Part shown: positions 19,468 through 44,335 of the stretch, piece after piece
Layout of the letters: every line of letters begins with the position of its first letter
Position numbering within the stretch: the stretch's first letter is position 1
Origin: an uncultured archaeon
GTDB taxonomy: Archaea; Thermoproteota; Nitrososphaeria; Nitrososphaerales; Gagatemarchaeaceae
Direction: 5' to 3'
NCBI GenBank assembly: GCA_963799775.1
Contig: CAWCYD010000003.1
Span: forward strand, 928,001 to 992,000
Length of the DNA stretch: 64,000 nt
The notes under the pieces: model-generated
What the model saw: only the letters and a program-made list of their open reading frames with translations
The model's database searches: none
Told to the model about the DNA's origin: nothing
Position numbers and translations under genes: made by a program

Positions 19468-20403
19468 TTAATTGTCGAGTCTAAATCTCAGACCATCGAT
19501 TGTTCCCTTTAGGAAGCTAGCCGCGGTCTTTGTCCTTCCATCCGTCGTGCTCAGAGGGTGATGTACCAAGTAGTATGCGGAGATGAACGGGAGTATGCAG
19601 AAAGAATAGAAGGCTAAGTCCCGCTTCTTGTAGTATCTCTTCAGGACGATGATCCTATTCCTCTCAGTGTAGTAGGCTCTCGTGCTGTCGATGTGCACCA
19701 GCGACCACCCTAGGTCGTGCCAGTCTTTCGCGGAGGGGTTGACCATTGCCACGTAACCCGCATTGCTCAGCTTGTGCGCAAAGTCCACCTCGCTGAACCT
19801 GATGGGAAGGTTCGCGCAGTCGAAGCCGTGAAGCTGCTCGAAGACCTCGCGTTTCACCACGAACGAATTGTGAAATGAGAAAGTGCGCGCCTCCGCGCTC
19901 GGAACGTCTGTGTGAAGCGTGTAGAAGCCCGGGAGCCTGCCTCTCGAGATGGTCGAGGTCCAGACGGTCGAAGGTCGTGCGAGATAGTAAATCATCGGGG
20001 CGGCGACTGCAGTGCGGGTCGAATTCCCTAGTGTCTCCACGAGCAGGCGGATCGCGTCCGGGGCGACGACGTTGTCATCGTCGAGGAAGAAGAGGTAGCT
20101 GCCCTTGGAGGCTGCCGCGCCGATGTTCCTGGAGCAGGAGAGCAGCATCCTCCTTTCGTTGCGGATGAACCTGGCGGAGGGGAACCTTGCTGAAAGAGCC
20201 GGTTCGACGGGCTCCGTTGACGCGTCGTCGACTACTATGACTTCGAGGTCTCGATGGTCGCTCGCGTAGACCGATTCGAGGCAGCGCGTCAGCTTGTCGT
20301 TCCTGTTCCGCGTTGGGATGATGACCGATACGAGCCTGCCCGCGGGATTCGCGCCTGTCGCCGAAGGCCGCTCCACGGCCGGCGTCTTGGATTCACTTGC
20401 CAA
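19468..20403 (-). CDS. Glycosyltransferase family 2
   Basis: VSVIIPTRNR, VDDAS, FLDDDN. Confidence 0.9.
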   Translation of the reverse strand: MASESKTPAVERPSATGANPAGRLVSVIIPTRNRNDKLTRCLESVYASDHRDLEVIVVDDASTEPVEPALSARFPSARFIRNERRMLLSCSRNIGAAASKGSYLFFLDDDNVVAPDAIRLLVETLGNSTRTAVAAPMIYYLARPSTVWTSTISRGRLPGFYTLHTDVPSAEARTFSFHNSFVVKREVFEQLHGFDCANLPIRFSEVDFAHKLSNAGYVAMVNPSAKDWHDLGWSLVHIDSTRAYYTERNRIIVLKRYYKKRDLAFYSFCILPFISAYYLVHHPLSTTDGRTKTAASFLKGTIDGLRFRLDN

Positions 20404-20773
20404 GCGAGAGCGTCAAGGTCTCCTTCGGCCCGTCAAGGTTCGCGACCATGGTTCTGAGCGCCTCCCTCCCCAGAAGCCTTCCGTGAAGGTGAGGCGAGGA
20501 GTGCACTCGTGTGGAGATGCGCACGGAGTCGATCGTCACGTCTGACAGCGCGGTGTAGACAACAATCCTCCTAGAGTCTGGCAAGACCGCGGCGTAGCTC
20601 TCGGGCACAAGCCTGCTCGTCAAGCCCAGAGACTGAAAGACGGCGAAGGGCAGAAGGACGCCTCCAGAGAAGCCCGTGTCCACGGCGAGCTCCATGGTGA
20701 AAGCGCCAATCGTCGCCTTGACCACGGGCGCGCTGGGTTCATGCTCCCTGCTGTATTTCCAGGTCAGGTCCAA
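20393..20773 (-). CDS. Clan AA (retropepsin-like) aspartic protease, copy 1
   Basis: TTG at 20773: MDLTWKYSREHEPSAPVV...AVDTGFSG...LLGREAL. Confidence 0.8.
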   Translation of the reverse strand: MDLTWKYSREHEPSAPVVKATIGAFTMELAVDTGFSGGVLLPFAVFQSLGLTSRLVPESYAAVLPDSRRIVVYTALSDVTIDSVRISTRVHSSPHLHGRLLGREALRTMVANLDGPKETLTLSLGK

Positions 20774-21128
20774 GGAATATCTCCCTCTGGGCGGGACGGC
20801 CGTCGACCACGAAGGTGAGGGCGAGGCGGAACCTCGAAGCAAACTTGCAGGCGCGGTCGTATGACTCGAAGACCCCCTGCAACCGCCCAAGACTGACGAC
20901 CACGGCCTTTCCACGGTGGGGCTCGAACTCCTCCTTCCACCTTCTTCGCACGAGCTCAAGGTTGGTCTGGTGCTCCCTCGCCATGGCGACCTCCGCCTCA
21001 CCCTCCGTCCACCTTGCAAGGGCCTCGCTCACTGCCCGGCCCATCGAGATGCCTTCGAGCGCCGCAATCGCCTTGGCCCGGCGATATGCTTCGGCGTCCA
21101 CCCCCTTTATCATGACGTCCTTTGGCAT
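20739..21128 (-). CDS. RHH + DUF5678-like protein, partner of protease 1
   Basis: VMIKGVDAEAYRRAKAIAALEGISMGRAVSEAL (RHH); HRGKAVVVSLGRLQGVFESYDRA. Confidence 0.7.
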   Translation of the reverse strand: MPKDVMIKGVDAEAYRRAKAIAALEGISMGRAVSEALARWTEGEAEVAMAREHQTNLELVRRRWKEEFEPHRGKAVVVSLGRLQGVFESYDRACKFASRFRLALTFVVDGRPAQREIFLGPDLEIQQGA

Positions 21129-21140
21129 GGGCGGATTATA

Positions 21141-21515
21141 CTAGTTAGACATGTTATATAAGGATAACCTGTGGCCAATTGGAAACTCGAGCAGGCCACT
21201 CTGACTCGCTGCACGCCCTTGGCGTCGGGCGACGCCTCTCGTCACTTGACTGAGGTATCGAGAAAGACTTTCGTTCAATGCCGCCTCCGCTTCCTGCACT
21301 CGAGGTCTGATCTTCTTCATGTCCTTGGAGAAATTGTCGAAGGCCCCTCGCACCTTCTCTCTGTCGGCTCTCGCGCCTGCGACCTTCTTGATCATGATCG
21401 AATCATCAGGAGATTCCTCGAACACGACCGCGTCCCCTGGTCGAATCCCTGTTCTCTCGGCAAGCCTCTTCGGTATTGTGACGTGCATCTTTCGCCTCGC
21501 CCGATATTGCCTCAA
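21141..21515 (-). CDS. AbrB/MazE-family antitoxin; C-terminus probably read-through into a toxin remnant
   Basis: HVTIPKRLAERTGIRPGDAVVF. Confidence 0.8.
   Translation of the reverse strand: MRQYRARRKMHVTIPKRLAERTGIRPGDAVVFEESPDDSIMIKKVAGARADREKVRGAFDNFSKDMKKIRPRVQEAEAALNESLSRYLSQVTRGVARRQGRAASQSGLLEFPIGHRLSLYNMSN
21242..21274 (-). pseudogene. N-terminal remnant of a PIN/VapC toxin
   Basis: Alternative frame reads TKVFLDTSVK* exactly where a vapC start would overlap the antitoxin end. Confidence 0.5.
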
Positions 21516-21670
21516 GTCCTACTTTCTTGCTTTACGCGCCAATAAAAGGATGAGTGACCGATCAGTCCGCGCTTGATCATGATTGAGGCTTGTGACGTCG
21601 GTTTCACCGATTGTGATATCAACCCGGCAGTTCACTGGCCACGGGAGACCGATGAATTGCACGCACACGC

Positions 21671-22231
21671 TTAGATTGGGTCACTGCCACCGACGCGCTT
21701 CTCCACGAGTTTCGCTAGGTTGTCGACGGCCCTCGTGAGTTCTTTCCTTGTCTCGACCGACTCCTTCTCCAGCGTCTCAAGGACGCTGGTCAGCTTTTGA
21801 GAGATCTCGCCATACTTGTGGTCGAGAGTTCTGAAGTTCTGGTCGGTCCTCTCGGCGAACCCCGTAAAATCGCTTCGATAACTGCTGAATTCTCCTCTGT
21901 AATCCCGGAATTCCGTCTGCATCGCCCCAAACCCCTCTTGGAGCTCTTCTGGTACGCTCCCGAACCGTATTTCGAAGAATTTGAGTCTCTGCTCAGGCCT
22001 TGCTGCATGTTGCTTTAGTTCCTTTGTCCGGGCCGGAGGCGGTGGGTTTCTTGCCGCTTCCACGAAGTTGCGCACAGCCGACTCTTCACCCTGGACGAAT
22101 ATTGTCACCGAGCCGTCTTTCTCATTCCTTACGTAGCCGGTCAGGTTCCCCTGCTGGGCCATCTCCCGAAGGTATCTCCGATAGCCCACAGCCTGAACCC
22201 TCCCACCCACATTCAACTTCAAGGCCTTCAT
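21671..22231 (-). CDS. Acylphosphatase with C-terminal coiled-coil extension
   Basis: GRVQAVGYR, GYVRNEKDGSV; about 90-aa heptad-like tail. Confidence 0.85.
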   Translation of the reverse strand: MKALKLNVGGRVQAVGYRRYLREMAQQGNLTGYVRNEKDGSVTIFVQGEESAVRNFVEAARNPPPPARTKELKQHAARPEQRLKFFEIRFGSVPEELQEGFGAMQTEFRDYRGEFSSYRSDFTGFAERTDQNFRTLDHKYGEISQKLTSVLETLEKESVETRKELTRAVDNLAKLVEKRVGGSDPI

Positions 22232-22529: not shown

Positions 22530-23459
22530 CTACCCTGACTGAGCGGCCACCTGCTTCTTCAATCCGTCGGTCAGCGGGGTGACCGGCTCGTAGCCTAGGT
22601 CGGCTCTCATCCTCGTGATGTCGGCCGAGGTGTCCTTGACGTCGCCCGGTGCCTTGCGAAGGTGCTTGATCCTGGCTTTCTTGCCCATGACGGATTCGAT
22701 CGTCGAGATCACGTGGTTGAGCGAGGTCGAGCCTCCTGTGCCGACGTTGTAGAGGCTGCCGGGCTTGGCCTGCGAGGCCAGGATTGTGCCCGCGACCGTG
22801 TCGCCCACGAAAGTGAAATCGCGCCTCTGCTCCCCGTCGCCGTAGACCTCGATCGGCTCACCGCGGGATATCCTCGAGATGAAGATGTTGAACGCCATGT
22901 CCGGCCTCTGGCGAGGCCCGTAGACGGTGAAGTATCTCAGGGTGACGACAGGCACGTCGTAGTTGCGAAGATAGACGTGGCAGAGGCTCTCCCCCGCGAG
23001 CTTGGTGGCCCCGTAGGGCGAGACGGGCCGAGGCGTGGCCTCCTCGGGCGTGGGCATCCGCTCCGAGTCTCCATAGATGCTCGACGAAGAAGCGAAGATG
23101 AACTTCTTAATCGGGGCGTCCTTTACAGCCTCGAGGAGCCGCTGGGTGGCGATGATGTTGTCCCTGACGTAGTGCGAGAACGTCCTTCCCCAGCTCGCGC
23201 GAACCCCCGGCTGAGCCGCTAGGTGGAACACCGCCTCCACGCCTCTGACGACCCCCGCCAGGCTGGCGGAAGCAAGGTCAGCCTCACTGAATTCAAACCC
23301 TTCGTTCTTGCGAAGACGGGAGAGGTTCGCGACCTTGAGCTTCTTCGGGTAGTAGTCGGTGAAGCAGTCTACACCTCGCACGGTGTGGCCCTCGGCAAGC
23401 AGCGCCTCTGAGAGGGTCGAGCCGATGAAGCCGGCACATCCTGTCACGAGGCATCTCAT
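22530..23459 (-). CDS. UDP-glucose/glucuronate 4-epimerase-like SDR
   Basis: MRCLVTGCAGFIG, HLAAQPGVRASW, YGATK, RQRPDMAF. Confidence 0.9.
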   Translation of the reverse strand: MRCLVTGCAGFIGSTLSEALLAEGHTVRGVDCFTDYYPKKLKVANLSRLRKNEGFEFSEADLASASLAGVVRGVEAVFHLAAQPGVRASWGRTFSHYVRDNIIATQRLLEAVKDAPIKKFIFASSSSIYGDSERMPTPEEATPRPVSPYGATKLAGESLCHVYLRNYDVPVVTLRYFTVYGPRQRPDMAFNIFISRISRGEPIEVYGDGEQRRDFTFVGDTVAGTILASQAKPGSLYNVGTGGSTSLNHVISTIESVMGKKARIKHLRKAPGDVKDTSADITRMRADLGYEPVTPLTDGLKKQVAAQSG

Positions 23460-24797
23460 TTCGCGCTGGCTTCTCCCAGTCCCACCGCGGCGTAGTCGAG
23501 CGCCTTTGAATAGACGACGGGGTCGTAGATCCTCCTTGCATCTATCAGCACAGGAGTCCTCATCAGCTTGGCATAGTCGGACGGCTTGAGCGCTCTGAAC
23601 TGCCTCCACGCGGTCATCGTGATGGCCACCTCAGCACCTTCCAGGCACTCCTTCGCCGAAGGAGAATAAGTGACGCTTTGGCCCAATGCCGGCTTCGCTG
23701 CCTTCATCGCCACGGGGTCATAGACGCGGACCTTTGCCCCCCGAGCAAGCAGCCCCAGCACCAGCGGGATCGACCTTGAGCCCCGCACGTCGTCGGTCTC
23801 GGCCTTGAAGGCAAGGCCCAGCACCGCCACCTGCTTCCCCAGGAGAGAGCCGACCCTCTTCTCCGCTAACCCGATGATGTGCCGCGGCTGGAACTCGTTG
23901 ACCGCGAGCACTCCCTCGAGCATCGAGCGGTCTATCGCTTGTTGCTTGAGGTATGCGCTGAAGGCGCGAAGGCTTCTTCTCGAAACAAGAACCGCCGAAC
24001 CCGGGTCCGGCCTGCAGGAAGAGGTGGCCGATGCGCGGGTCTAGCCCGATGCCCCTCGCCACATCGTTCACGTCGGTCCCAGGGTAGAGCTCGCAAACGA
24101 TCGAGACGAGATTGATGAAGCTGATCTTGGTTGTGAGCAGGGAGTTGCTACCGTACTTGATGAGCTCGGCGCCCTCTGGAGAAGTCTCGACGATAGGCGG
24201 CACGTTCTTCCCGTAAAACTTACGGTAGAGAGAGCCCGCCGCGAGGAGGGATCCTGCGTCCATGCCTCCTATGACTATCCTCTGGGGGCTGAGCGAGTCC
24301 TGGATAGCGGTCCCTTCCCTAAGGAATTCCGGGTTGGAGCACAAGTCGAACCCCTCGCCGCACCTCTTCCCAGACCCGGTCTCCAGGATCCGGTTCACGA
24401 GCCCCCTCGTCGTTCCAGGAATGACGGTGCTCCTCACGAGGATGAGAGGCTTGTTGCTCGAGCCCTTGATGAGAGAAGCGACGTCGGCGGAGGCTCCCCT
24501 CACTTGGGAGAGGTCAATCGAGCCGTCCTCCACGCTTGGCGTGCCGACGGCGACGAAGATCGCGTCCGCACCCTGGAGCGCGCGAACGCCGACCGAGAAA
24601 TCCAGCCGCTTCGTGCGCTGGCCGCTCGCCAGTAGGCCCTCTAGTCTCTTTTCGTGAATTGGGACCGCGCCGTTCTTGAGCTGCGCGACCCTCAAGGCGT
24701 TGTTGTCGACCACGGTGACTTGGAACTTGGTCGCGAGACAGGCTGCAGTCGAGAGGCCGACGTAACCTGCCCCGATTACTCCGACCTTCATCATCAC
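23456..24797 (-). CDS. ugd: UDP-glucose 6-dehydrogenase (frameshift near 23980)
   Basis: VIGAGYVG, NPEFLREG, GPGFGGSCF, LGLAFKAETDDVR. Confidence 0.9.
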
Positions 24798-24909: not shown

Positions 24910-24940
24910 GTGGGACAAACTATTGGAAACGTGGGACAAA
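24910..24940 (+). promoter_or_regulatory. Putative antitoxin operator: GTGGGACAAA direct repeat x2 just downstream of a TTAAATA box
   Basis: Exact 10-bp repeats at 24910 and 24931, immediately before ATG 24941. Confidence 0.55.
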
Positions 24941-25186
24941 ATGACCGTGCAAGCGCCAATTAAAATGGACTCGAAGCGGCGAATCGTGCTAGGCAAGAGG
25001 ATACGCAGGGCGTCCGGAATAGGGCCTGACGACGACTTGGTCGCATTCGCCTTCCACGGTGGGATCCTGATCACTTCGACGAAGGGGAAGCATTTTGCGG
25101 GGAGTCTGACCGGTTTCCACTTTGAGGAGGAGAAGCACGATGCGACCAAGTACCTAGAGATGAGGCTCAAGGATGCCAGTACTTGA
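24923..25186 (+). CDS. AbrB-family antitoxin (VapB-like; likely start 24941)
   Basis: KMDSKRRIVLGKRIRRASGIGPDD. Confidence 0.8.
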   Translation: METWDKMTVQAPIKMDSKRRIVLGKRIRRASGIGPDDDLVAFAFHGGILITSTKGKHFAGSLTGFHFEEEKHDATKYLEMRLKDAST

Positions 25187-25616
25187 CACGGCGGTCCTCT
25201 TTGCAGCGGCTGATGCGTCGGACAGGTTTCACGTTGATTCCATCGATTGCCTGCGCGGGCTCTCTGAAAGGATCCTCCTTGGAGCCTCGGCACTGCTTGA
25301 GTTTGACCTCGTGCTAAAGAGCAGAGGGACCAGCGTGGAGCGGCGCTCGGACCTCATGGTCCTTCTCCTCAGCGACTTTCCACGAGCGGGCTCCGCGGTT
25401 CACCCAATCTCTCCTTCTACCCTGGCCATGGCGGGGCAGCTCGAGACGAGGTTCGAGTTGGACTACTTCGACGCGCTGCTTGCGAGCGAGGCCCTCGAGC
25501 ACGACGGCGAGGTCGTCTCAAGCGACCGCCAGTTTGACAAGATTCCCGGCCTGAGAAGAGTCACCCTGGTCTCGCACGAGAGACCCTCCAACTTGACGAA
25601 TGACCACGGTCACTAG
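25173..25616 (+). CDS. PIN-domain toxin (VapC-like)
   Basis: VLDTAVL, LLEF, LDYFDALL, SSDRQFD. Confidence 0.9.
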   Translation: MPVLDTAVLFAAADASDRFHVDSIDCLRGLSERILLGASALLEFDLVLKSRGTSVERRSDLMVLLLSDFPRAGSAVHPISPSTLAMAGQLETRFELDYFDALLASEALEHDGEVVSSDRQFDKIPGLRRVTLVSHERPSNLTNDHGH

Positions 25617-25872: not shown

Positions 25873-26268
25873 TCATCCGGAAAATGCCTCGAGCTTCACT
25901 CGCATCGAGCAATAGTCGAGGAGCGTCCTGGTGCGAATAAGCGCTTCGACTCCGACCAGCACCTCCATCACCCCTTCGTAGGTCTCGATGAACCCATCCG
26001 CTGAGACCGAGCCATCGCTCGCGTCAAATGACCCGTAGGCGCCTTCGGAGCCCAAGACTTCGCCGTTGGCCGTTATCAGGGTCCTCTTCTCCAACTCCAT
26101 GCGGTCCAGCTCAAGAGACTCGAAGATGTCCCTTGGACAGGCGATGAACCCGTCGTATCCCGTATCTATCACTGCCAGGACGTTCCCTTTTTCAGGAAAG
26201 ATCTTTCTGAACAGGGGATTTCTGAGGACGACATTCAAGGCAGGCGTGAGCCCGACGAACTCGCTCAT
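25873..26268 (-). CDS. Clan AA aspartic protease, copy 2
   Basis: LAVIDTGYDGF, LITANG, VLVGVEAL. Confidence 0.8.
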   Translation of the reverse strand: MSEFVGLTPALNVVLRNPLFRKIFPEKGNVLAVIDTGYDGFIACPRDIFESLELDRMELEKRTLITANGEVLGSEGAYGSFDASDGSVSADGFIETYEGVMEVLVGVEALIRTRTLLDYCSMRVKLEAFSG

Positions 26269-26591
26269 TGCCTCGAACCACGCAGGCCGACCCTCAACAT
26301 CTTGCGCAGAGGGGTCGAGGAGACGATCCTCACGGACCTGGGGTCGACATCCAGCTGGCGTAGCTTGCTGGCGAGTTCGTCCAAGGTGGCCCCCGTCCCC
26401 ACCTTGAGCTTGCCCTCGAACGCCGTGAACGTCAGCGGCTGCCTGACCTTGGTCTCGGAGGACATCCTATCCTCAAGCGCCTCTCTCACTAGGCCCGATA
26501 TTGCGCCCTTCTTGCCACCGTATCGCTCTGCTACCAGTCTTCTCAGCCTGTCCACTGTCTCTTTTGGGAGGCTGACGGTGAGGTTTACCAT
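26265..26591 (-). CDS. RHH + DUF5678-like protein, partner of protease 2
   Basis: NLTVSLPKETVDRLRRL...AISGLVREAL; FTAFEGKLKVGTGATLDEL; ATGA overlap with the protease. Confidence 0.7.
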   Translation of the reverse strand: MVNLTVSLPKETVDRLRRLVAERYGGKKGAISGLVREALEDRMSSETKVRQPLTFTAFEGKLKVGTGATLDELASKLRQLDVDPRSVRIVSSTPLRKMLRVGLRGSRQ

Positions 26592-26749
26592 GTGCCTCTT
26601 GATTACGTAATGTCTATTTAAACGCCACGTAAACCAAGGAATACCTGCCTGACGGCATGGGTCTCTAAGGCGCTTGGATTCTGGTCGCGAAGTCATTGCC
26701 AAGAACAAAGTTCATTCAACTGCTTAAGCTCGGCGACAAAGCTCAAGCT

Positions 26750-27031
26750 ATGCAAGTGATGGAGCCTCGTACCAGGCAGGAGGCCCAGATTAGGACGCAG
26801 GATAGGCAAACCCATCCTTCTCTGATTGACCAACTCCTCGTGACGCTTCTCGCCGAGCATGCCGGATGGATAAAGTGCCCAACACATGGCTATGTCCACC
26901 AGCCCGTCCTTTCGGGATACCACGGCAGTTTCTACTTCAGGCGGTGTCCGGTGGGACCTTTCGGGCATTACGGGGTGGATTTACCGGGGGCAGGGCCCGC
27001 ATGGCAGGGCCTTAGTCTCCGACCTCTATGA
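26750..27031 (+). CDS. Small Cys/His protein, copy A
   Basis: MQVMEP...WIKCPTHGYVHQPVLSGYHGSFYFRRCPVGPFGH; paralogue of 28504..28764. Confidence 0.7.
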   Translation: MQVMEPRTRQEAQIRTQDRQTHPSLIDQLLVTLLAEHAGWIKCPTHGYVHQPVLSGYHGSFYFRRCPVGPFGHYGVDLPGAGPAWQGLSLRPL

Positions 27032-27362
27032 CCAGCCTGTTTTGTTCGGAGGGATAGATGACCACGGGAAGGTCCTTCTTGATCTTGAGCGAGTTGGCGA
27101 TGTCCTTCGGGATCCGGATTACGAGCGAATTCCCCGATTTGGCTACGCGGCCCCTCCTCTCCAGACCGAACAGCCCCCTCTTCTTGACTTCTGCCTCGAT
27201 TTCACTCATCAAGTCCTGTGAGAGGTACTCGGAACCGCACTCGGCGCACACTTCTGCTTCCTTCATGCCGAAGTCGATTCCGAAGAACTCCACCTCCGTG
27301 GTGGTCTTCTTGAGTTTCCCGCCGCACCGGCATCTGATGTCCAAGATGGCCTCTGCCGTCAA
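27012..27362 (-). CDS. YgiT/MqsA-type zinc ribbon fused to an AbrB domain (antitoxin)
   Basis: CRCGG...CAECGSEY; KSGNSLVIRIPKDIA. Confidence 0.8.
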   Translation of the reverse strand: MTAEAILDIRCRCGGKLKKTTTEVEFFGIDFGMKEAEVCAECGSEYLSQDLMSEIEAEVKKRGLFGLERRGRVAKSGNSLVIRIPKDIANSLKIKKDLPVVIYPSEQNRLVIEVGD

Positions 27363-27598
27363 GGCACCTTCACCGTCACGGGAAAGACCTTCCTGATGTT
27401 CGAGTTTCGGTAGAACCTTTCGTCGTAGACCACCAAATAGCGCTTGAACAGAGCCTGCACCAGACCTGTCTCCCGCTGTATGGATTTCTTCCCTTTGGTT
27501 ATCGTCTCTTCAACGTCCTTCACGGACACTCCTCTCAACCACATCCGCTCTATCGCGTGCTTCACCCGCTTGTGCTCCCAGTTGATCTTTAGCCGCAC
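27359..27598 (-). CDS. DUF4258/RelE-like putative toxin
   Basis: KHAIERMWLRGVSVKDVEETI...LVVY...VTV; overlaps the antitoxin start. Confidence 0.7.
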   Translation of the reverse strand: MRLKINWEHKRVKHAIERMWLRGVSVKDVEETITKGKKSIQRETGLVQALFKRYLVVYDERFYRNSNIRKVFPVTVKVP

Positions 27599-28783: not shown

Positions 28784-29368
28784 CTAGGGCTCTAGGACCG
28801 TGATCACACCCCGCATCCACGCTGGGTGCCACATGCAGTAGTAGTCGTATGTGCCTGGGACTGTGAAAGTGTAGGTGAACGTCTCGTTCGTGCCCAGTAT
28901 CAGGTCGACTTGGCCAGCCCCTGCTGGCACGACGTTGGTCACCACGGTGTGCTGGCTCAGGTTGTCCTGGTTTATCCACGTGACCGTATTGTTGACACCT
29001 ACCACAAGCTTGAGATGCGAGGGCACGAAGTTCAGGCTCTGGTTCTCGGCAATTCCCTTGGGTATGATGACGAGTGTGTCGTTGAAGAAAAGCCCGAGCT
29101 TGTAGCCTGGGGTAGTCGTAGTAACTGTGACGGTCTGCAAAGACGTCTCGGTCCCCGCTACGGTGAAGAGTGTTTGGGTCAGGGTGCTCAGGATGGTGGA
29201 GCTTTGGGTTATCGTCGTCGGCGATATCAATTGGCTCACGACGGTGGTCAGGTTGGCCCCGGACTGGTTCAAGGCGTTCAGAAAGTATGTGCCTTCTGCG
29301 AGGGACGCGACGAGCAGCACAACCACCACGCCCACAAAGACCCTCGTGGAGATTGCTCGCCTTTTCAA
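28784..29368 (-). CDS. Membrane-anchored type 1 cupredoxin (plastocyanin/azurin family)
   Basis: VTWINQD..HTV, YYCMWHPAWM ligands. Confidence 0.9.
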   Translation of the reverse strand: MKRRAISTRVFVGVVVVLLVASLAEGTYFLNALNQSGANLTTVVSQLISPTTITQSSTILSTLTQTLFTVAGTETSLQTVTVTTTTPGYKLGLFFNDTLVIIPKGIAENQSLNFVPSHLKLVVGVNNTVTWINQDNLSQHTVVTNVVPAGAGQVDLILGTNETFTYTFTVPGTYDYYCMWHPAWMRGVITVLEP

Positions 29369-29506: not shown

Positions 29507-30808
29507 TTGGTTCTCGCGAGAAAATCCATCAAGCAGAACTTCGAGCCCACCCCCCGAATCCACGTGCTCATGGAAGATTTCAGGCAGATGACCAATGATT
29601 GTATCAGAATAGGGCTAGAATTCGAGGAAAGGAATGCAGGCAGGACGCCATCGATGAAGAAGCTCTCCCTTCTAGCATACAATGACCTGAGGACTCGTTA
29701 TGGGGGCTTCGCTCAATACACACTCTGTGCGATATCGAAAGCAGCAGGCATACTATCGGCCCGAAGAAAATCGATTAAGCGAGGACATACGACGAAGAGA
29801 CCCTATCCGTCAAACCCGATGCTTGTTTCTTGCTATGGATTCAAGGTCTCAGGGAATTGCGATGGCCTGATTGTTCATCTTGATGCCAAGACATTCGAAA
29901 CTATCCCATTGAATGACCACACACGGTCGATGTTGATGCCGCGTGGTTCCTCGGTTAGGGTCCGCTCATTTACTCTGACCCCAGAATCGATATCGCTCTG
30001 TATCGCCAAAGAGACGGATTCGAGGGAAAGGAACGAGGTCGTCGCTGCAGTCGGAATCGACAGAAATCTCAAAAACGTAGCTGTCGGCAATGAGAGCTTG
30101 GTCACGCTCTATGATTTGACCAAGGTTCTAGAGATAGGAGAGAATACGAGAAGCGTAATCAAGTCATTCAAGAGAAATGATGTAAGAATAAGAAAGAAGA
30201 TCGCATCAAAGTATGGGAATGGGAGGAAGCGTAGGGTAAGGCAGATACTGAATCGATTGTCAAAGGAAATAGTGATACAAGCAAAGAAGAACAAGCAGCT
30301 GGTCGTCTTTGAGGACATGAGAGATATCCGAAAACTGTACAGGAAGGGGAACTACCAAGGCAGGTCTTTCAGAGATAAGATGAACAGCTCTTTCCCGTAC
30401 GGTGAGCTAAAACGAGAGGTAGACTACAAATCAGCATGGGATGGCGAAGTACCGGTGATGACTCTCACAAAGGGTGAGACCAAAGGAACGACTATGGATT
30501 GTCCACGATGCGGGGAGAGACTCCAAGTGGCATCCAGAAACGACACCGTGCACTACAGACAGCTGTGGTGTCCAAAATGTGAGAGATGGACGGACAGGGA
30601 CGTGGTCGCTGTCATGAACATCTCTCACAGGGGGCTGCTGAGGTTCCGCAGTTCAACAATCAAAGGCGAGGCAATTGAAGCAATGAATGGGAACCCGAAG
30701 GAGGGATGGAGCTCTTACAAAGAGCCGGTAAACCTACGAGTCGATGCCTCGAAGTTAGGTCTGACTGAACGTGCTCCTGGCAAGAAGAAGCATGCCCAGA
30801 GGATCTGA
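29507..30808 (+). mobile_element. tnpB: Stand-alone TnpB RNA-guided nuclease (IS200/IS605/IS607-related, no tnpA)
   Basis: RuvC D (GIDRN), E (FEDM), D (DRDVVAVMNI); CPRC/CPKC zinc finger; visibly more AT-rich than its flanks. Confidence 0.9.
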
Positions 30809-32453: not shown

Positions 32454-32941
32454 ATGTTTTCAACTCGAAAGATTCTATTGATAGCACTCCTTGTCAGTCT
32501 CATGGGCGCCCCACCACACTCGGCCCAATCGGCGTCGTCTGTCTTTGTAAGCATTCCAAATGGGACGGCTTCAGGAGGAGTCGGGCCTGGCTATTCACCT
32601 TCGGCAATCACCATAGTCATAGGTGTGAACAACACCGTGACTTGGACAAACAACGACGACACAGCGCACACTGTGACGCCTAGCGAGACTCCCTCGCCGG
32701 GAAGTTGGTCGTTTGGCTCGGGGAACATGAATCCAGGCGAGGTGTACTCTTTCACTTTCACCGTCCCCGGGAACTACACGTACACGTGCGCTTACCATTC
32801 CTTCATGTTCGCGAGCATCACTGTAAAGTCCAGCGGTTCCCCAGCCCCTGAGTTCAGCCAGGCCCGATAGGACTGACTCTCTTGGTCGCAATGGCCTCCG
32901 CAGTTCTCCTCAGAAGAGCTCTGCGATTGCCCAGGCCCTAG
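32454..32941 (+). CDS. Type 1 cupredoxin with PEF-CTERM-like tail (frameshift near 32865)
   Basis: VTWTNND.AHTV, YTCAYHSFM; PEF then, in another frame, PIGLTLLVAMASAVLLRR. Confidence 0.8.
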
Positions 32942-33081: not shown

Positions 33082-34205
33082 TTAGGACAGCTTCCTTACT
33101 AATATTGCTAGTTCGAGGACTAGAGTGATTGCTGCGAGTGCAGCAACTACCAGAACGTATGTCTGGTTGTTGTTGACGGAGTTGGTGAGTGTTGTGAGTT
33201 GGCCGCTGATTCCAGCGACTTGCCCAATGCCTGTAGAGAATGTGCCTAGTGTGTTGGTGATGCCGGTTACTCCAGTGGAGATCCCGTTGACGGTTGTCTG
33301 GACTGCTGAGAGTGTTGTGCTGATGCCGCTGAGCTGTGTTTGGATTGCTGCCAGCGCCGCTGCGTCAGGGCTTGACCCCGAGCTGGTAGCTGTGACGGTC
33401 TGTGTCACTGTAGTTGTTGTTCCTGGGCCCGAGCCGCCTGAAGAGGCCGGCTGGACGGTGAATGTGCCCAAGCCTTCGCCAGTGACGCCGTTGGCGTCAG
33501 TGGTTCCAGCGTGGACTCCGTAGAGCCCTTGGAGCGCTGTTGCTGGTAGGGTGAAGTTCACGTAGTAGTATCCCGTGTGGACTCTCGTGTACGTCCCTAG
33601 GCATACGGCTCCCGCGGCTGTTCCGGGGTTGCAGATGTTGTGTAGTGTGCCATCTGGGTAGTGGATGTGGAAGGGTGACCAAGTCGCGACATCGTCCAAC
33701 GTTCCCGTTGGAGAGGACGTCAGGATGGAAATCCCCACATAGCCAGTACTCGCGATGTAGGTAGCCTGGATGTTGACGGTCATGAAGTAGTTGGATGGGC
33801 CGCCAGATCCCTGGGTTCCGGTCGCTGTGTACTGGAACGTGGATGTGGCTGTTGCTGTCGCGCCGTTGAAGCCCCAGGTCGCGTTGACGGTATAGGCCCG
33901 TGGTCCAACCCGATGCACCACCGGTGACGAAGGCGTAGTTGTACGTCCCCGTTCCGGTTGCGACTGGTTGGCTGCCGATGTCAACGGTTCCTGAATTGAC
34001 CCTTCGTCGTGATGATCACGTTCGAAGAGCCCGAGGGGGCCGGTGTCACCGTTCCCGAGACCTGGACTGTCTGCGTGCCTGCATAGCTTGACGCGCTGGT
34101 CGAGACGGTTATGGTTGAGGCAGCAAAGGCGGCCATTGGCCCTAAGACCAAGACGGCCGCGATTAGGACTGCTGCGATGGTTCTGAGTGTCTTCAAATCA
34201 ATCAC
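33082..34205 (-). CDS. SlaB-like membrane-anchored surface protein (frameshifted at about 33900-33990)
   Basis: Signal peptide, beta-rich domains, heptad stalk (IQTQLSGISTTLSAV...), C-terminal TM helix + RK. Confidence 0.65.
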
Positions 34206-34212: not shown

Positions 34213-37200
34213 CTAGATTGTCACCGTTGTCGTGCTTGTCGTCGACACTGCGGTTCCTGATGTTGATGTCGTGAACAGAGTCACGGAGTAGGTGCCGGAT
34301 GGCAAGCCGAACAGCACGTTAGTTGCTGTAGCGCTCGATCCTGCGGACACCGTGATCGTTGCTGTGGAGACGTCGACTGTCTGTCCCGCGCCGTTGTGCA
34401 CGACTGCGAAGACGATGACTGTCTGTGGTGCGTTGGAGTTGTTAGTCCATACCGAGTTGACTGTCTTGTAGCCCGCAACCGAGCCGGTTGAGATAGCGCC
34501 GCTGCTTGTTGTCATGCAGCTCGTTGTCTGGCAACCAGTTGTCGTGGAGCCGACTGTGAGAGTTGGTGGCGATGCGAGTCCGATGTTACCGCTGCCCACA
34601 GGCTGCAGTTCGACTGTGTAGCCCGCACCAGAGCTGACTGGCTGTGCGCCAGAGTTGGTCTGGTAGGTGCTGGGGACTGTGAAGGTGCCGGATCCTGCTC
34701 CCTGTGCGTTGGAGAGGATAGCGCCCACTACAGTTCCGCAAGTCGAGCCGCTAACACCGCATGAGTAGGGTGCGAAGAGTACGTTGTAGCCCTTGTTCGA
34801 GTTGAGTCCGTGTGCGTTGAGGACGACGTTGTGCCCGATTGGGGCGGATGACATGTTGAGGTTCGCGCTTGCCTGCAGTTCGAACTGCGCGACACCGGTT
34901 GCAGGACCTGAGCCAAAGTTGGCTCCGGTCTGAGCGAAGATGCAGTATAGTGTACCTTGCTCAAGGCCAGTAGCCGTTGGCATGTCGTTGATAGCGACGG
35001 AAGTCCCTGATGGGACTGCTCCTCCGCTAGTAGAGGTGAAGGCGCCTGCGACTGTTGATGGCTGTCCAGCGGATGCGATAGTGCATGTCGATGGGGGTGA
35101 GCCGCCTGCCATGACAACACCGAGGTCGTACACGGTGCTGCCTGCTAGGCCAGTGCCTGAGACGGACACGCTTCCTCCTACGTTGGCTACGGTTGGCACC
35201 GCAACGAGGCTTGTGCCCTCGTTGAAGAGCATGTCACCGAAGTTCGTTTGGAGCGTTGTGCTCGTTAGGCCTGGATCAGTGTCGAGATAGTCGCCCTGTA
35301 GGTTGTCGGAGAACATCATGCTCGTTCCGATAGCAGAGGTTCTCTGGAGGTCGATGATGTGTGTGCCGCTGGTGTCAGCGGGGATGGTGAACTGGACTCC
35401 GGGCACTGGGATTCCACCAGTTGCCGTGGAAGTGAAGGTCCCTAGGACGGTCCCGGTTACTCCCGGTGACGTGGTGCCAGCGTTCCATATGATGTCATAT
35501 GCCGTGTTCGGGTAGAGTCCGTGGACTCCGAACGTGGTGCCGGTCCTGAGGATGCTTGTTGAGCCTGCAGTGCCCGCGACGCTACTTAGCGCCTGGGTTG
35601 CTGCAGTGCCTCCACCGTTGATTCTCGGGTCGAAGGTCGTCCCTGCGGTGTTCGTCACAGCTGCGCTGGTGACGCTACCTGTGACAACAATGTTCTGGGG
35701 CCATGCACCGAGGTCGGGAACTTGTCCCGCCGCTGTCGCGCAGAAGCCATTGGTTGTTGCACATGTGCCGCCGGAGACCATCGAGGCTCCGCCGACCGTC
35801 AGTGTGAGACTGTCGGTCGCGCCGAATCCGTGTCCAGATACGGTGAATGTTGAAGTTGAGTAGTCAACTGTTGAGGCGCCGTTCACTACCCATGGTGTGA
35901 TACCGAACGACGGGCTGAGGATGTTTGCAGGAGCTGTTCCTGCTTGGGTGACTGTTGGGGGGTAGCTTGCCGCTGTAGTCGGAGCTCCAGAAGTAGACCA
36001 GGCTGTGTCACCTAGACCTGCTTCGGCCAAGAATGCGCCGTTGCAGTCAGGCGACCCTGAGGTTGGGCTCGATCCTTGGAAGACGACAGGTGAGGTCGAC
36101 CAGGTCACTCCAGTTGGAGTGGCGATACTGATCGCTCCGCCTGCTGCTCCGCCACATGCCGTGGCGGGAACGAACCCGTAACCGAAGAAGCCTATCTGAT
36201 TCTGGACCGGCTTGGGGTTGCTACTTGATGCGCTGAAGCCAGTTCCTGGCTTGTAGTTGCCTGAAGATGAATCGATGTTTGCGATACCGGTGCTAGTGGA
36301 TGTCCCTGCGATAGAGGAGATGAATGCTCCTCCCCACGGGAAGTCCTTTGTAGCGCCGGCTGTGCTGATGGCCACTCCTGTGGTCACAGAGCCGAGGGCG
36401 ATGTTGCCGTTAGCATAGCTGAACGTCGATCCCTGGATCGTTACTGGCTGGTTCCCGAACGGCACGTTTGCCGTTGGCGAGAGGACCACGCCGTAGAAGG
36501 TTCCAGTGGAGCTGACGACTATGGCGTTGTGGCTTGTTCCCACACTGCCGATCGTTATGCTGTTCGACGAAATCGTGCCGGCTGCAAAGCCATGGCCCTC
36601 CACGAGTACGGAGGTTGGCGCTGTGCCGAGGAAGCTGTATGTGGTCTTGTCGGCTCCCGAATTGTAGAAGGTGACCCACGGGTTGACCGTGAACGTTGTC
36701 GTTGCGGTCAGTCCAGAGGTAGCACCTGTTGCAGTGACAGTCTTGGATCCGCCCGAGACGTCGGCAATTGAGGTGCCGACTGCGGCCTGACACGATCCCG
36801 CTCCTGTGGTTGCGCTCCCTCCTAGTGTCGTGCCTGTTGTGCACGTGAAGGAGGTTACCACGAACATGGAGGTCGCGATCGTTACCGACTCGCCTGAGCC
36901 GAATCCGGTCACTGAGATAGTTCCGCCGATTGCTTGTTCAGGGAACCCGAAGTTGGAGGTGCCAGAGGTCTTGGAGAAGGATACGGATGGTGTGATGGTG
37001 AATGGAACGCTCACAGTGTTGGTCCCGTCAGTCACGACGATGGTTTCTGGGCCACCGGGGAGTGCGGGGACTGTGAAGACGCTCTTGAAGCTGCCAACTG
37101 CTGTGGTTGTGACACAGCCGGTTGGTGAAGCAGTGTTGATGAGGCTGTCGACCCCGGTGACTCCGCCGATTGCGTTGGCGAAGGTTCCTCCGCAGTTATT

Positions 37201-37527
37201 CTGGCTTGCGGATGGATACCAAGAGGCCGTTGATGTGCCCACTGTCGTTGAGACAGCTATCGGTGCATTGGTGGCGAATCCCGTACCTGTTAGGGTAAGG
37301 GACGAGCCGACAGTGCCCGCGGTGACGCCCGTTAGTTCGGTGGGGCCACCAAGTGTCGACGACAGAGGTGATATTGTCGACAGGGTTACTGTGGCAGTCG
37401 CTGCGTGCGCGCTTTGAAACGGCAGCAGGAATACCATACCTGCTATTCCAGCGAGGAATAGCAGACCTATCGTTCCTAATGAAGCTAGTCTGTTTGTTTG
37501 TGTGATATGCGTTTGCATATTATTCAC
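34213..37527 (-). CDS. Probable major S-layer glycoprotein (SlaA-like), 1104 aa
   Basis: Signal peptide, T/S/G-rich Ig-like repeats, C-terminal TNNSNAPQ.VIVFAVVHN..GQTV...GTYSVTLF domain resembling thaumarchaeal S-layers. Confidence 0.7.
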   Translation of the reverse strand: MNNMQTHITQTNRLASLGTIGLLFLAGIAGMVFLLPFQSAHAATATVTLSTISPLSSTLGGPTELTGVTAGTVGSSLTLTGTGFATNAPIAVSTTVGTSTASWYPSASQNNCGGTFANAIGGVTGVDSLINTASPTGCVTTTAVGSFKSVFTVPALPGGPETIVVTDGTNTVSVPFTITPSVSFSKTSGTSNFGFPEQAIGGTISVTGFGSGESVTIATSMFVVTSFTCTTGTTLGGSATTGAGSCQAAVGTSIADVSGGSKTVTATGATSGLTATTTFTVNPWVTFYNSGADKTTYSFLGTAPTSVLVEGHGFAAGTISSNSITIGSVGTSHNAIVVSSTGTFYGVVLSPTANVPFGNQPVTIQGSTFSYANGNIALGSVTTGVAISTAGATKDFPWGGAFISSIAGTSTSTGIANIDSSSGNYKPGTGFSASSSNPKPVQNQIGFFGYGFVPATACGGAAGGAISIATPTGVTWSTSPVVFQGSSPTSGSPDCNGAFLAEAGLGDTAWSTSGAPTTAASYPPTVTQAGTAPANILSPSFGITPWVVNGASTVDYSTSTFTVSGHGFGATDSLTLTVGGASMVSGGTCATTNGFCATAAGQVPDLGAWPQNIVVTGSVTSAAVTNTAGTTFDPRINGGGTAATQALSSVAGTAGSTSILRTGTTFGVHGLYPNTAYDIIWNAGTTSPGVTGTVLGTFTSTATGGIPVPGVQFTIPADTSGTHIIDLQRTSAIGTSMMFSDNLQGDYLDTDPGLTSTTLQTNFGDMLFNEGTSLVAVPTVANVGGSVSVSGTGLAGSTVYDLGVVMAGGSPPSTCTIASAGQPSTVAGAFTSTSGGAVPSGTSVAINDMPTATGLEQGTLYCIFAQTGANFGSGPATGVAQFELQASANLNMSSAPIGHNVVLNAHGLNSNKGYNVLFAPYSCGVSGSTCGTVVGAILSNAQGAGSGTFTVPSTYQTNSGAQPVSSGAGYTVELQPVGSGNIGLASPPTLTVGSTTTGCQTTSCMTTSSGAISTGSVAGYKTVNSVWTNNSNAPQTVIVFAVVHNGAGQTVDVSTATITVSAGSSATATNVLFGLPSGTYSVTLFTTSTSGTAVSTTSTTTVTI

Positions 37528-41672: not shown

Positions 41673-43457
41673 TCACGGCTTTAGCTTGAAAATCGCCACT
41701 CCGGACTGGTTGTAGACCATCTGGAAGCGGGAGTCGTTGGGATAGAGGGAGAACGGGTTCTGGCTCGCATTGGCGAGGACCACCGTCCCGACCCTCGTGA
41801 GCACGACGTAGGTCGGCGAGGTGCTGTTCCCAGAGGCCGCGACGACATCGCTCGGGGCGGCGAGGGGGGCGTATCCGGACGGCCGATTATAGAGGAGCTG
41901 GTAGAAGTTGAAGTAGTCGCTGGTGACCGAGACGACGAGGCTTCCCTGCGGGGTGTTGGCGTTCATCCACCCCATGGCGTCCAGGATCCCATGCTGGGTC
42001 TGGTTGTTCGCGGCCCCGTTCGACGCGGCGTCGCCCAGGAGCTGCCAGCTCCAGGAGTTCACGACGAGAAGCAGGAAGATTATCCCCACGGCGGCGTAGC
42101 GGGCCCGCGTCCAGTCCGTCCTGTAGCGCAGCTTGCTCCTCTGCTTCATCGCCCTCTCCTCGGGCCGAGGGATGAGCGCCTCGAAGGCGATGGAGGCGAA
42201 GACCAGGAGGGGTAGGAGCGTCATGTAGGAGAAGCGCCAGGCCCCTTCAGTGAAGGGGGCGACGGCGAGGAGCGCGACCAGCCAGACGAGGAGCATCCAC
42301 ACGACCGGGTTCTTGCTCCGGATCCCGAGGTAGGCCCCGGCGACGGCGAGCGCGAGCGCGAGCAAGGCCCCAGAGTCGTCGGCTATCTCTATCACCGCGT
42401 AGCGGAGGACCGGCCAGCCCGCGAACAAGCCCGAGATCGAGGTGTCCCCCGGTAGGTTCCCCCCTCCCGAGGACTGGGCGAACTGGAGTAGGAGGGTGAC
42501 GAGGCCGGGCATGACGGCGGCCGCTACAGCCGCGGGCACGAGCACCACCGCCGCGACGGCGACGCTCGGCAGGTTCACCTTCCTTTCGACTAGGAGTAAC
42601 GCCACGGGCAGGGCGACCAGGGCAGGGATCACTGTCACGAAGGAGTAGTGCGACATGTATCCGCTCGCCACGGCCAACACAAGGGCGACCCAGACCCCGG
42701 GGCTCCGCGGCTGCTTGAGCACCATCGGCACGAGCGCGAAGAGGAGGAGTATCGAGAGTATCCCGTAGAAGTTCGCGTAGAGGCCCGCGTCGAAGACGCT
42801 CCCGAACCAGACGAAGCCCGTGAAGACGTAGAGGATCGCGGCGACGAGGCCCACGCGCTTCGACCCCGTGATCGAGTCCACAGCGAAGAAGACGAGGAGG
42901 GGCGAGAGGGCCACGAGTATCCCCATCGCATACTGGGTCGCGAGGAGGACGAGGTCGCCCGAGAGCGCGACGAGCGAGCCCATCAGGAGGTGGGCGCCAT
43001 AGTAGAGGACGCCCCCGGGGAGGAACGAGATGTTGCCGGCCTGGAGGTCCGTCGTTATCTGGACGTGCTGGGTAAAGTCGACGCTCTGGAACTGGGGGAA
43101 TACCGGGTACTTGTAAAAGTGCACCGCGACGAGGACGGCCTGCGCTACGACGAGCCCGAGCACGTAGAGGTCGTAGCGCGAGAGCGTAGCGAAGGAGGCC
43201 GCCTTGCGCCTCAGGGCGACGGGCACGACGAACGCCACGAGGGAGACGGCGAGCAGGGCCCCGAGCGTCGTCGTGTCTATCCCCCTCCCCAGGGTCGTCT
43301 TGACCGCGAGGACGAGCACGTCGACTGCCATGGAGAGGCCGAAGGCGAGGCCCAGGCGCTCCGCGAGGGAGAGCTCAGGCCCGAGATTGAAGACCTCGAC
43401 GACGGCAAGGCCCGGGAGGAATAGGAGGGCGATGAACTCGAGGTAGCCCAGGAGCAT
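41673..43457 (-). CDS. Polytopic membrane protein, GT-C-like glycosyltransferase candidate
   Basis: More than 12 TM helices, SVDFTQH loop, YYGAH, C-terminal AMGWMNANTP..S.VVS domain. Confidence 0.6.
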   Translation of the reverse strand: MLLGYLEFIALLFLPGLAVVEVFNLGPELSLAERLGLAFGLSMAVDVLVLAVKTTLGRGIDTTTLGALLAVSLVAFVVPVALRRKAASFATLSRYDLYVLGLVVAQAVLVAVHFYKYPVFPQFQSVDFTQHVQITTDLQAGNISFLPGGVLYYGAHLLMGSLVALSGDLVLLATQYAMGILVALSPLLVFFAVDSITGSKRVGLVAAILYVFTGFVWFGSVFDAGLYANFYGILSILLLFALVPMVLKQPRSPGVWVALVLAVASGYMSHYSFVTVIPALVALPVALLLVERKVNLPSVAVAAVVLVPAAVAAAVMPGLVTLLLQFAQSSGGGNLPGDTSISGLFAGWPVLRYAVIEIADDSGALLALALAVAGAYLGIRSKNPVVWMLLVWLVALLAVAPFTEGAWRFSYMTLLPLLVFASIAFEALIPRPEERAMKQRSKLRYRTDWTRARYAAVGIIFLLLVVNSWSWQLLGDAASNGAANNQTQHGILDAMGWMNANTPQGSLVVSVTSDYFNFYQLLYNRPSGYAPLAAPSDVVAASGNSTSPTYVVLTRVGTVVLANASQNPFSLYPNDSRFQMVYNQSGVAIFKLKP

Positions 43458-43514
43458 CAGTCGACCGGTTGGTTTGCACCTCTATAAAGCCGGAACGAAG
43501 GTTCACCGTCTGGT

Positions 43515-43944
43515 TCAGGCGCGTTCCGAGAGCGTAGCCTTGCCGATGCAGAGCCGCTCGCCCCTGTGAAGAAGGGTCGTGAACTCCTTCGCAGTCCTCC
43601 TCCCTATCAGCACCTTGCCCGGGCCGCTCACCGGAGTGACGACCTCGGCGGTCAGGGCAGCTCCCTCCCAGGGCCACCTTCGCGACGCTGGAGCGGAAAA
43701 TGACCGTCCCTCCGAACGTCCTGTACGCCGGGAACTGGCTCTCGGGCCTCTCGGAGAGCCCCAGCTTCAACGCCTCGTAGCTAGCAGAGTCGACCATCAG
43801 CTCGCCGTGGAAACCCGTGTCGAGGGTCGCCTTCAGCGAGATGTGGTCACCAGTGACGACGTTCGTGACCTCCACGCCGATCTCGAGGCCCTCTTCCCCC
43901 TTGAAGCACTCATGCTCTTCGAAGGCTACCCGCAAGCCAATCAC
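43515..43944 (-). CDS. Clan AA aspartic protease, copy 3 (frameshift in a G-run near 43665)
   Basis: ATLDTGFHGEL, YRTFGG; shifted frame gives KVLIGRRTA. Confidence 0.75.
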
Positions 43945-44335
43945 GCTCCTCGCGCACTTCACCGACCTTCCCGATTATGGCATGCAGGAAGGGCCTTTTC
44001 TTGTATGCCTTGGCCATCTCACCCGCGACTTGGGCCTCGCTGTCCCCCAGGATGACGACCGAGCCTCGCGCGACACCCACCCACCTCCCCTTCATGGAGG
44101 GGTCGGACTCGGCCTTCCGAAAGGCGACGTTGTCCTCATCCTCTATCGTGAGGATGGCTTCCGCCTTCTTCCCCACCGGACCGCTGTTGGCGCCGACCAG
44201 GTACTCGGCCAAGGCTTCGTTGAGGATGCTGTAGACGGGCTGCCCCCTCTCTGCCGCCATCGCCTTGAGCCTCCTGTACGCCTGCCTGTCGATCTTCTTG
44301 AGGTAGATCCCTTCCGCTTGCATGATGTTATCCAA
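43910..44335 (-). CDS. RHH + DUF5678-like protein, partner of protease 3
   Basis: IYLKKIDRQAYRRLKAMAAERGQPVYSILNEAL; MKGRWVGVARGSVVILGDSEAQV. Confidence 0.75.
   Translation of the reverse strand: MDNIMQAEGIYLKKIDRQAYRRLKAMAAERGQPVYSILNEALAEYLVGANSGPVGKKAEAILTIEDEDNVAFRKAESDPSMKGRWVGVARGSVVILGDSEAQVAGEMAKAYKKRPFLHAIIGKVGEVREERDWLAGSLRRA

Follow-up and report, generated by a model that had tools for sequence, protein, structure and literature searches.

The window analysed here, a 64,000-nucleotide stretch of contig CAWCYD010000003.1 from an uncultured archaeon of the Gagatemarchaeaceae, contains three two-gene units, M1, M2, and M3, each composed of a gene for a small partner protein and a gene for a retropepsin-like aspartic protease. 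All three units are encoded on the minus strand, with the partner gene located 5′ of the protease gene. A sequence-only reading of the same DNA had reported three partner–protease modules, and the coordinates of the open reading frames (ORFs) confirm their places. The units have a toxin–antitoxin (TA)-like form, in which two small co-directional genes overlap or are tightly coupled and the antitoxin-type gene comes first. We see about an even chance that the module, found in soil archaea, is a type II TA-like operon, in which a ribbon-helix-helix (RHH) antitoxin would hold a protease toxin by acting as its pseudo-substrate.

Architecture of the three modules

The M1 partner gene (20739-21128, minus strand) encodes 129 aa, composed of an N-terminal RHH domain, a DUF5678-like domain (GKAVVVSLGRLQGVF...), and a conserved tail, E-I-F-L-G-P-D-L-E. 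The M1 retropepsin-like protease (20393-20773, minus strand; 126 aa from TTG 20773) carries DTGFSGG and LLGR, and its ORF shares the last 35 nt of the partner gene in a different frame. This protease frame has no ATG. Its most likely start codon is TTG 20773, which falls within the 3′ end of the partner gene, because a TTG is found at the same position, within the partner's E-h-G-P-D/E-L codons, in 9/10 M1-type junctions (this genome and five other assemblies). At these junctions a GGAG-like stretch is located 8-14 nt 5′ of the TTG, and in five of the ten no other start is possible between an upstream in-frame stop and this TTG; the paralogue L032 has TCG where the other junctions have TTG. 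A programmed +1 frameshift fusing the M1 partner to the protease was rejected, since the TTG is so widely kept behind the GGAG-like stretch and the other subtypes start with ATG or GTG.

In M2, the partner (26265-26591, minus strand) has 108 aa from ATG 26591, in an ORF that is open to 26708. It contains two RHH helices (10-24 and 30-46), a β-hairpin/helix/strand domain (55-91), and a conserved tail, L95-R107 (..R.G.RG..). The M2 protease (25873-26268, minus strand; 131 aa) harbors D35-T36-G37 and LVGV, and the two genes overlap by 4 nt, placing the protease ATG on the partner stop codon. The M3 partner (43910-44323, minus strand) has 137 aa from ATG 44323, its ORF being open to TTG 44335, and is built of an RHH domain, the GRWVGVARGSVVILG domain, and the tail ..RDWLAGSLRRA. 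The M3 protease (43515-43962, minus strand) is spread over two frames, with an N part (DTGFHGE) starting from GTG 43962 or 43944 and a C part (LIGR) ending at 43515. A single-domain protease of roughly 130 aa had been expected in each module; this holds for M1 and M2 but not for M3, which is not one ORF. The copies are strongly diverged, in agreement with the earlier view that they are too divergent for a recent duplication: BLASTP aligns no more than 21 aa of the M1 protease with that of M2, and 39 aa of the M1 partner with that of M3.

The proteases match the NCBIfam model TIGR03698 (clan_AA_DTGF) with E-values of 1.4e-11 (M1), 2.6e-13 (M2), and 3.5e-4 (M3 N part), the corresponding scores of 44.7, 50.2, and 20.8 bits all being under the curated cut-off of 57.35; the relatives L001-L005 exceed it. 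Pfam gives sub-threshold matches only (gag-asp_proteas, E 0.05-0.11). The motif pairs expected of clan AA are present as DTGF..LLGR (M1), DTGY..LVGV (M2), and DTGF..LIGR (M3), in line with the DTG and LLGR/LVGV/LIGR-type motifs of the sequence-only reading, and D35, T36, and G37 are invariant across 22 M2-type protease sequences. The window proteases share with the TIGR03698 family (AF_0612 family, COG5550) the DTG(F/Y) motif, a length of ~110-135 aa, and the lack of a signal sequence; they differ in scoring under the cut-off, and the family model also spans a partner-less DTGA/DTGS branch. According to a 2009 paper, little is known of the prokaryotic single-domain clan AA peptidases of COG5550 (PMC2642776).

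The AF2 model of the M2 protease (pLDDT 90.1, pTM 0.83) was compared with solved structures using Foldseek, and all matches at E<=1e-3 are retropepsins (APRc 5c9f, RSV/AMV, Ddi1, HIV-1, and FIV). The best match is APRc 5c9f (E 6.8e-5). APRc (RC1339 of Rickettsia conorii; PDB 5c9f/5c9d/5c9b) has the same prokaryotic retropepsin-like fold, at ~19-21% identity; it is anchored in the membrane at the cell surface and is not known to have an RHH/DUF5678 partner. The window proteases are cytoplasmic; the catalytic motifs of all three and the fold of the M2 model place them among the retropepsin-like members of clan AA, and their TIGR03698 E-values are significant.

For the partner proteins, an N-terminal RHH domain had been proposed, and the AF2 model of the M2 partner (pLDDT 72.8) does contain two RHH helices (10-24 and 30-46) after an extended N-terminal segment, followed by a β-β-α-β domain (55-91) and a low-confidence tail. 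The N-terminal strand is unpaired in this model because the model is a monomer. The Pfam scores of the window partners, however, lie under the gathering cut-offs (M2, 22.1 vs 27 for RHH_6; M1, 15.0 vs 27 for FitA-like RHH; M3, 14.3 vs 20.5 for RHH_1), with E-values from 2e-4 to 0.04; the relative L081 passes (27.4 vs 27). At E<=1e-3 the M2 partner model has no fold match in the PDB, the best being NikR (E 0.1), which is alike in architecture only.

The resemblance to DUF5678 was found in relatives and not in the window itself. None of the three window partners matches Pfam PF18929 (DUF5678, cut-off 23.2 bits), even at E<=10, whereas the relatives L028 and L017 pass with 35 and 49 bits, and the paralogue L033 and the M2-type L067 reach 17.4 and 17.6 bits. 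The M3 partner aligns with the L028 partner at 27% identity over 136 aa (E 2e-10). In addition, a full HMMER search with the M1/M3 partner profile recovered 860 cluster representatives at E<=1e-3; among the best 150 of them, 35 match DUF5678 (E<=1e-3) and 34 match FitA-like RHH. The DUF5678 kinship of the window partners runs solely via relatives. The G[KR]xVxV motif of the sequence-only reading is present in M3 and loosely in M1, but M2 does not fit it.

The M1 and M3 partners align with each other over their full length, and the M1 partner has 17 close relatives. The M2 profile aligns with the M1/M3 profiles with 77.8% probability (E 1.9e-5), over the RHH domain and into the beginning of the domain that follows. 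The tails differ by subtype and are of the types E-h-G-P-D-L, R-x-G-x-R-G, and G-E-W-L-W-S-S. Several relatives of the M1/M3 partners (P0175, P0180, and P0052) contain two tandem DUF5678-like domains, with an RHH head in some and a Phd/YefM-like head in P0175, and by these sequences the DNA-binding head of the partner seems interchangeable. The 150 best relatives include 11 proteins of >=170 aa; all of these lack a D[TS]G[FYA] motif, and no fused partner–protease was seen there.

Linkage, co-divergence, and decay of the two genes

The genome contains ten TIGR03698 matches, eight of which lie behind a partner gene and two of which are solo. The three modules reported earlier are therefore the window's share of a larger set, the eight paired copies being M1, M2, M3, L031, L032, L033, L034 (degraded), and L035. 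They fall into three subtypes, and the subtypes of partner and protease always match (M1–M1, M2–M2, and M3–M3). The two solo genes (G000:C3:1483650-1483952 and C3:1635059-1635370) encode retropepsin-like proteins with DTGS, belong to the solo branch, and lie beside housekeeping genes, one of them adjoining a branched-chain aminotransferase-like gene.

Conserved linkage of the two genes is also found outside this genome, as the census that had been proposed reveals. The protease family occurs in 17/151 genomes of the class. Among the 27 foreign loci of the class that were read, 13 have a partner directly upstream, 13 are solo, and one is cut off. The 13 solo loci belong to the DTGA/DTGS branch with a C-terminal DP.TG.L motif, one of them (L011) having only ~220 nt of upstream DNA. 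A partner matching DUF5678 only, at the 49 bits given above, was found 5′ of the protease at a single one of the 13 paired loci, L017 of the unpublished genome G132. A search of GTDB genomes with an M1-only alignment yielded eight full-length M1-partner relatives, all in Thaumarchaeota/Nitrososphaerota metagenome-assembled genomes, and a protease ORF follows in 8/8 cases (six complete, one truncated, and one at a contig end). In metagenomes, 52 M2-type loci were found, and an M2-type partner (E<=1.5e-17) is present in 45 of the 46 with enough upstream DNA, which the remaining six lack. A more distant metagenome match, L102, lies behind a partner of the M3 type. Across the phylum, 8/401 genomes contain a full-length M2 partner, and three genomes contain split copies.

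In the protease tree, the six partner classes need five changes, the minimum possible, and a branch with an SH-aLRT of 96 separates the solo proteases from the rest. This tree was built by a quick method from 56 rows, which left out M3, L033, L017, and six rows without a clean domain. The pairing of partner and protease is far beyond chance; the two genes co-diverge, and the spread of the module is patchy.

A further 27 metagenome loci (L103-L129) encode distant relatives of the M2 protease with DTGFD/DTGYD, most of them behind a ~95-aa partner (..GKFVAIDIETG.YE.D....RIGSRY..) that has no RHH domain. Assigning these 'GKFVAIDIETG' partners to Pfam DUF5678 was rejected, as 0/13 sampled have a Pfam match at E<=0.1; by their sequences, they are a partner family without a model.

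Several copies are decayed. A +1 frame change interrupts the M3 protease at 43661-43670 (GGGAGGGAG), and the length of this protease, read over the break, equals that of the intact one-frame relatives L007 and L028. L033, the sole paralogue of the M3 protease, is broken too, by one extra base at another place. In addition, L034 is degraded and L032 is without a start, and other genomes also hold decayed copies (L037, and split copies in G293, G355, and G201). A third +1 break in the protease family is seen at ~1440-1500 of L006 (G051), where an M2-type protease begins in one frame (MSAFIGGTP) and goes on in the +1 frame. In the window, a UDP-glucose/GDP-mannose dehydrogenase gene (23456-24797, minus strand) consists of two overlapping ORFs with a +1 frame change within 23718-23923, just after the GGSCF motif, either a pseudogene or an assembly indel, and this break has the same direction as those of the M3 and L033 proteases. 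The genome consists of three contigs and is rated 81.67% complete. The breaks in M3 and L033 may reflect pseudogenes or assembly errors. The only public run that contains the region, from soil (share 0.31; contig depth ~1-3), lists no indel at 43661-43670, the cover of the site in this run being uncertain.

The decay raises the question of whether the window copies are relics of a once-mobile cassette, now idle. The break in M3, the frame-broken L033, the degraded L034, and the missing TTG start of L032 are what such relics would look like. M1 and M2, however, are intact, with conserved catalytic and interface residues, and the breaks themselves may be assembly errors, as the split UDP-glucose dehydrogenase gene and the incomplete genome indicate. 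We therefore consider it very improbable that the window copies are mostly dead remnants.

Predicted complex of protease and partner

The complex was predicted from two copies of the M2 protease and partner residues 50-108, both given as alignments, in three runs and three controls. The ipSAE is 0.82 in all three runs, compared with 0.22, 0.00, and 0.00 in the controls. The runs share >=95% of their contacts, and the partner has a pLDDT of 86 in the complex. In the model, the partner uses its tail (L95-R107) to contact D35, G37-G40, and the flap hairpin 62-69 of both protease subunits. Moreover, the folded domain of the partner (residues 53, 55, 69-74, 77, and 84-91) contacts residues 18-21, 77-80, and 91-93 of one subunit, where the predicted errors are lowest. 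Seven of the eight invariant columns in the C-terminal half of the partner are located at the interface (L70, L73, L77, R85, I89, G102, and R104), the eighth, A57, being elsewhere. The two protease copies in the model both offer D35 to one peptide, as a homodimer with a shared active site would. We know of no solved complex resembling this docking of a folded domain on the protease flank. The structural half of the earlier proposal, in which a cytoplasmic retropepsin dimer is restrained by its RHH partner or cleaves it, is supported by the linkage, the subtype tracking, and this model (0.82 vs 0.22 for the best control).

The flank docking may also be read as that of an adaptor or assembly factor. 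The DUF5678-like partner would then fold, dimerise, or localise a housekeeping or stress protease, or load substrates onto it, and the RHH domain would only couple expression to DNA or to a regulon. Such a role agrees with the strict linkage, with the existence of DUF5678-like partners without RHH, and with the docking of the globular domain at the flank of the protease, where the predicted error is lowest. The most conserved partner residues, however, include the cleft-filling tail, which would block substrates. The solo relatives in the same genome manage without a partner, and multi-copy expansion and decay speak against a housekeeping role. An adaptor function is quite improbable in our view.

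The tail may, in addition, be a substrate. In a repressor-cleavage switch resembling ImmR/ImmA or DdrO/IrrE, the RHH partner would be both repressor and dedicated substrate, docked through its DUF5678-like domain; a signal would lead to cutting of the tail or linker and to derepression, and the protease need not be toxic. Such a switch would have the same module anatomy as a TA-like operon, and the tail in the model lies substrate-like in the catalytic cleft. The tails of M1-type and related partners contain a proline motif (h-G-P-D/E-L or L-P-S-P-E), and retroviral proteases typically cleave before proline. ImmA/IrrE-type proteases are COG2856 metalloproteases, and the ImmR/DdrO repressors are helix-turn-helix proteins. 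The two systems resemble the present pair in co-transcribing a DNA-binding protein with a dedicated protease; an aspartic retropepsin with an RHH partner differs from them in both components, and only the logic could be shared.

Promoters, surroundings, and possible role

Each partner gene has a TATA-like box ~25-35 nt before its start codon. The M1 promoter (21129-21170, minus strand) contains the TATA-like cttatataa at ~-34 to -26, followed by the box aacatgtctaac, which is conserved among M1-type promoters; the core TATC.TTAT.TA.C.TGT.TA.C is found in >=7/9 M1-type promoters from different genomes. The M2 promoter (26592-26625, minus strand) has the TATA-like tttaaata (26615-26622) and a 10-nt palindrome, ATTACGTAAT (26602-26611), and the M3 promoter (44324-44365, minus strand) has an AT-rich TATA-like box and a short inverted repeat with arms at 44334-44343 and 44350-44359. 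The palindromes at paralogue promoters are stronger, with 10-nt arms in L031 (equalled by 0 of 2000 shuffles), 7-nt arms in L032 (61), and 7-nt arms in L035 (42). An operator at the module promoters is plausible, because the paralogue palindromes are strong and the M1-type promoter core is conserved. The palindromes would also suit the repressor of a cleavage switch.

The modules were said to lie in or beside TA clusters. This is correct for M1 and M2, which are flanked by TA genes, but M3 is located between a membrane-protein gene and a weak transposase-like ORF, its nearest TA gene, a PIN gene, being ~2.8 kb away. An AbrB/MazE-type gene (21141-21515, minus strand; PF04014, E 2.2e-7) ends 12 nt upstream of the M1 partner; no such gene was seen beside the M1-type modules L036-L041, and it is a neighbour rather than part of the module. 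Beside M2 lies an AbrB-like and PIN (VapBC-type) pair (24923-25616, plus strand; PIN E 5.9e-10), the small first ORF of which has no Pfam match, and upstream of M2 there is a DUF4258 and zinc-ribbon/MazE-type pair (27012-27598, minus strand). The ORF directly upstream of M3 (44400-45533, minus strand; 377 aa) has no Pfam match and a weak PHROG transposase match (E 2.8e-4). Four M2-type modules elsewhere adjoin CRISPR genes, namely Csa1 (L056/L061) and Cas6 (L067/L068), the two loci in each case being near-duplicates. PADLOC and PHROGs gave nothing useful for the partner proteins.

The neighbours differ at every module locus, and there are no conserved cargo genes. The only targets of a repressor would therefore be its own gene and that of its protease, which argues against the repressor-cleavage switch. 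Moreover, eight diverged and partly decayed copies with a patchy spread suit selfish TA-like modules better, and the 27 distant relatives L103-L129 have partners without a DNA-binding domain. We regard the switch as unlikely.

Elsewhere in the window, a 433-aa ORF (29507-30808, plus strand) contains a Cas12f1-like TNB domain (TnpB-type) and is likely IS200/IS605-family cargo. A 1104-aa ORF (34213-37527, minus strand) has no Pfam match at E<=1e-3 and is followed by matchless ORFs at 33981-34205 and 33082-33984. A polysaccharide-biosynthesis (flippase-like) ORF (15674-16567, minus strand) covers only positions 177-289 of 293 in the Pfam profile and looks truncated or frame-broken. Cupredoxin/plastocyanin-type genes (28784-29368, minus strand, and 32454-32870, plus strand) fit a Nitrososphaerota-like organism.

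In the TA-like operon that we favor, the first gene would encode an RHH DNA-binding domain joined to a small DUF5678-like domain and a subtype-specific conserved C-terminal tail, and the second a cytoplasmic homodimeric retropepsin-like aspartic protease. The protease would be translated by coupling, its start overlapping the end of the partner gene or lying inside it (M1 and M3), with a weak TTG in M1. The DUF5678-like domain would dock on the flank of one protease subunit, and the tail would occupy the catalytic cleft beneath the flaps in the manner of a pseudo-substrate, keeping the protease closed for as long as the partner is there. Through its RHH end, the partner probably represses the promoter of its own module. 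Once the supply of partner stops or the partner is removed, the free protease would cut cellular proteins, leading to growth arrest, addiction, or a defence response.

This arrangement has counterparts among known systems. Type II TA systems with RHH antitoxins include FitAB, ParDE, and VapBC. The modules share with them an antitoxin-type gene that comes first and overlaps the next, an RHH domain at the N terminus (among the Pfam RHH models, FitA-like RHH gives the top match with M1-type partners), a C-terminal part that is predicted here to reach the active site of the partner enzyme, and many diverged copies per genome among other TA loci. They differ in that the candidate toxin is an aspartic protease of the retropepsin fold and the part that binds combines a folded DUF5678-like domain with a tail. 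In retroviruses, the protease is likewise a homodimeric DTG enzyme whose cleft is filled by a peptide encoded just upstream (transframe/p6*), whereas in the present modules the element encoded upstream is made as a distinct protein, which has a fold of its own and a DNA-binding domain, and there is no polyprotein. The Saci_1895-type retropepsin (PADLOC PDLC01133, PEPT_D) is another small archaeal retropepsin-domain protein in a defence context, to which the similarity is weak; its accessory gene lies inside type III CRISPR cas cassettes of Sulfolobales (PMC3973734), and the CRISPR protein is not known to have an RHH/DUF5678 partner.

Several observations weigh against a TA function. The RHH domain, and with it TA-style autoregulation, is an accessory to the pair rather than its core, because the distant M2-protease relatives L103-L129 have ~95-aa partners without a DNA-binding domain. 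Short inverted repeats had been reported at each window promoter and are indeed present with 5-6 nt arms, but they are not above chance, being equalled in 612 (M1), 671 (M2), and 305 (M3) of 2000 shuffles, and inverted repeats of that length also occur in 30% of the 786 promoters taken from the genome as controls. TA families are found within 1.5 kb of 10/26 paired loci and of 7/9 solo loci, so that the TA neighbourhood is real but unspecific, being as common at solo as at paired loci. The matches in PADLOC are weak and concern PDLC01133 (M1 protease, E 9.7e-5; L028 protease, 5.4e-4) and the generic peptidase PDLC01052, and scans of IMG/VR viral contigs with alignment-derived patterns gave no relative, a viral origin being rejected on this ground. 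With regard to the complex, the ipSAE mark of 0.82 is reached by 58/80 solved complexes and 2/110 mismatched pairs in a calibration from single-chain pairs, whereas the job used three chains and its own alignments. The model may have reproduced the peptide-in-cleft pose from the many solved retroviral protease–peptide complexes. A tail in the cleft looks equally like a substrate, and the model does not separate inhibitor from substrate.

A literature search, which did not extend to supplementary files, found no published study of the RHH-DUF5678/retropepsin pair and no TA toxin of the retropepsin fold. To our knowledge, neither DUF5678 nor the prokaryotic single-domain retropepsins (COG5550/TIGR03698) have a known function. 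We tentatively suggest, as a possibility that still falls short of an even chance, that the pair represents a new class of type II TA (or abortive-defence) system, with a retropepsin-like toxin and an RHH-DUF5678 antitoxin bearing a pseudo-substrate tail, in which three tail types would insulate eight paralogous modules from one another.

If this is true, it would give a first function to DUF5678 and to the archaeal TIGR03698/COG5550 proteases with such a partner, and proteases of the HIV type would join the effectors of TA and defence systems. It would also provide a cellular parallel to the restraint of retroviral proteases by a peptide encoded just upstream. The conserved tails, too, would be peptides that naturally inhibit these so far unstudied proteases or are cut by them, and they would define the specificity of the family. 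The pair is unusually easy to read in this genome, where the partner has gained an antitoxin-type head, the module is present in eight diverged and partly decayed copies, and the complex model suggests a testable tail-in-cleft mechanism.

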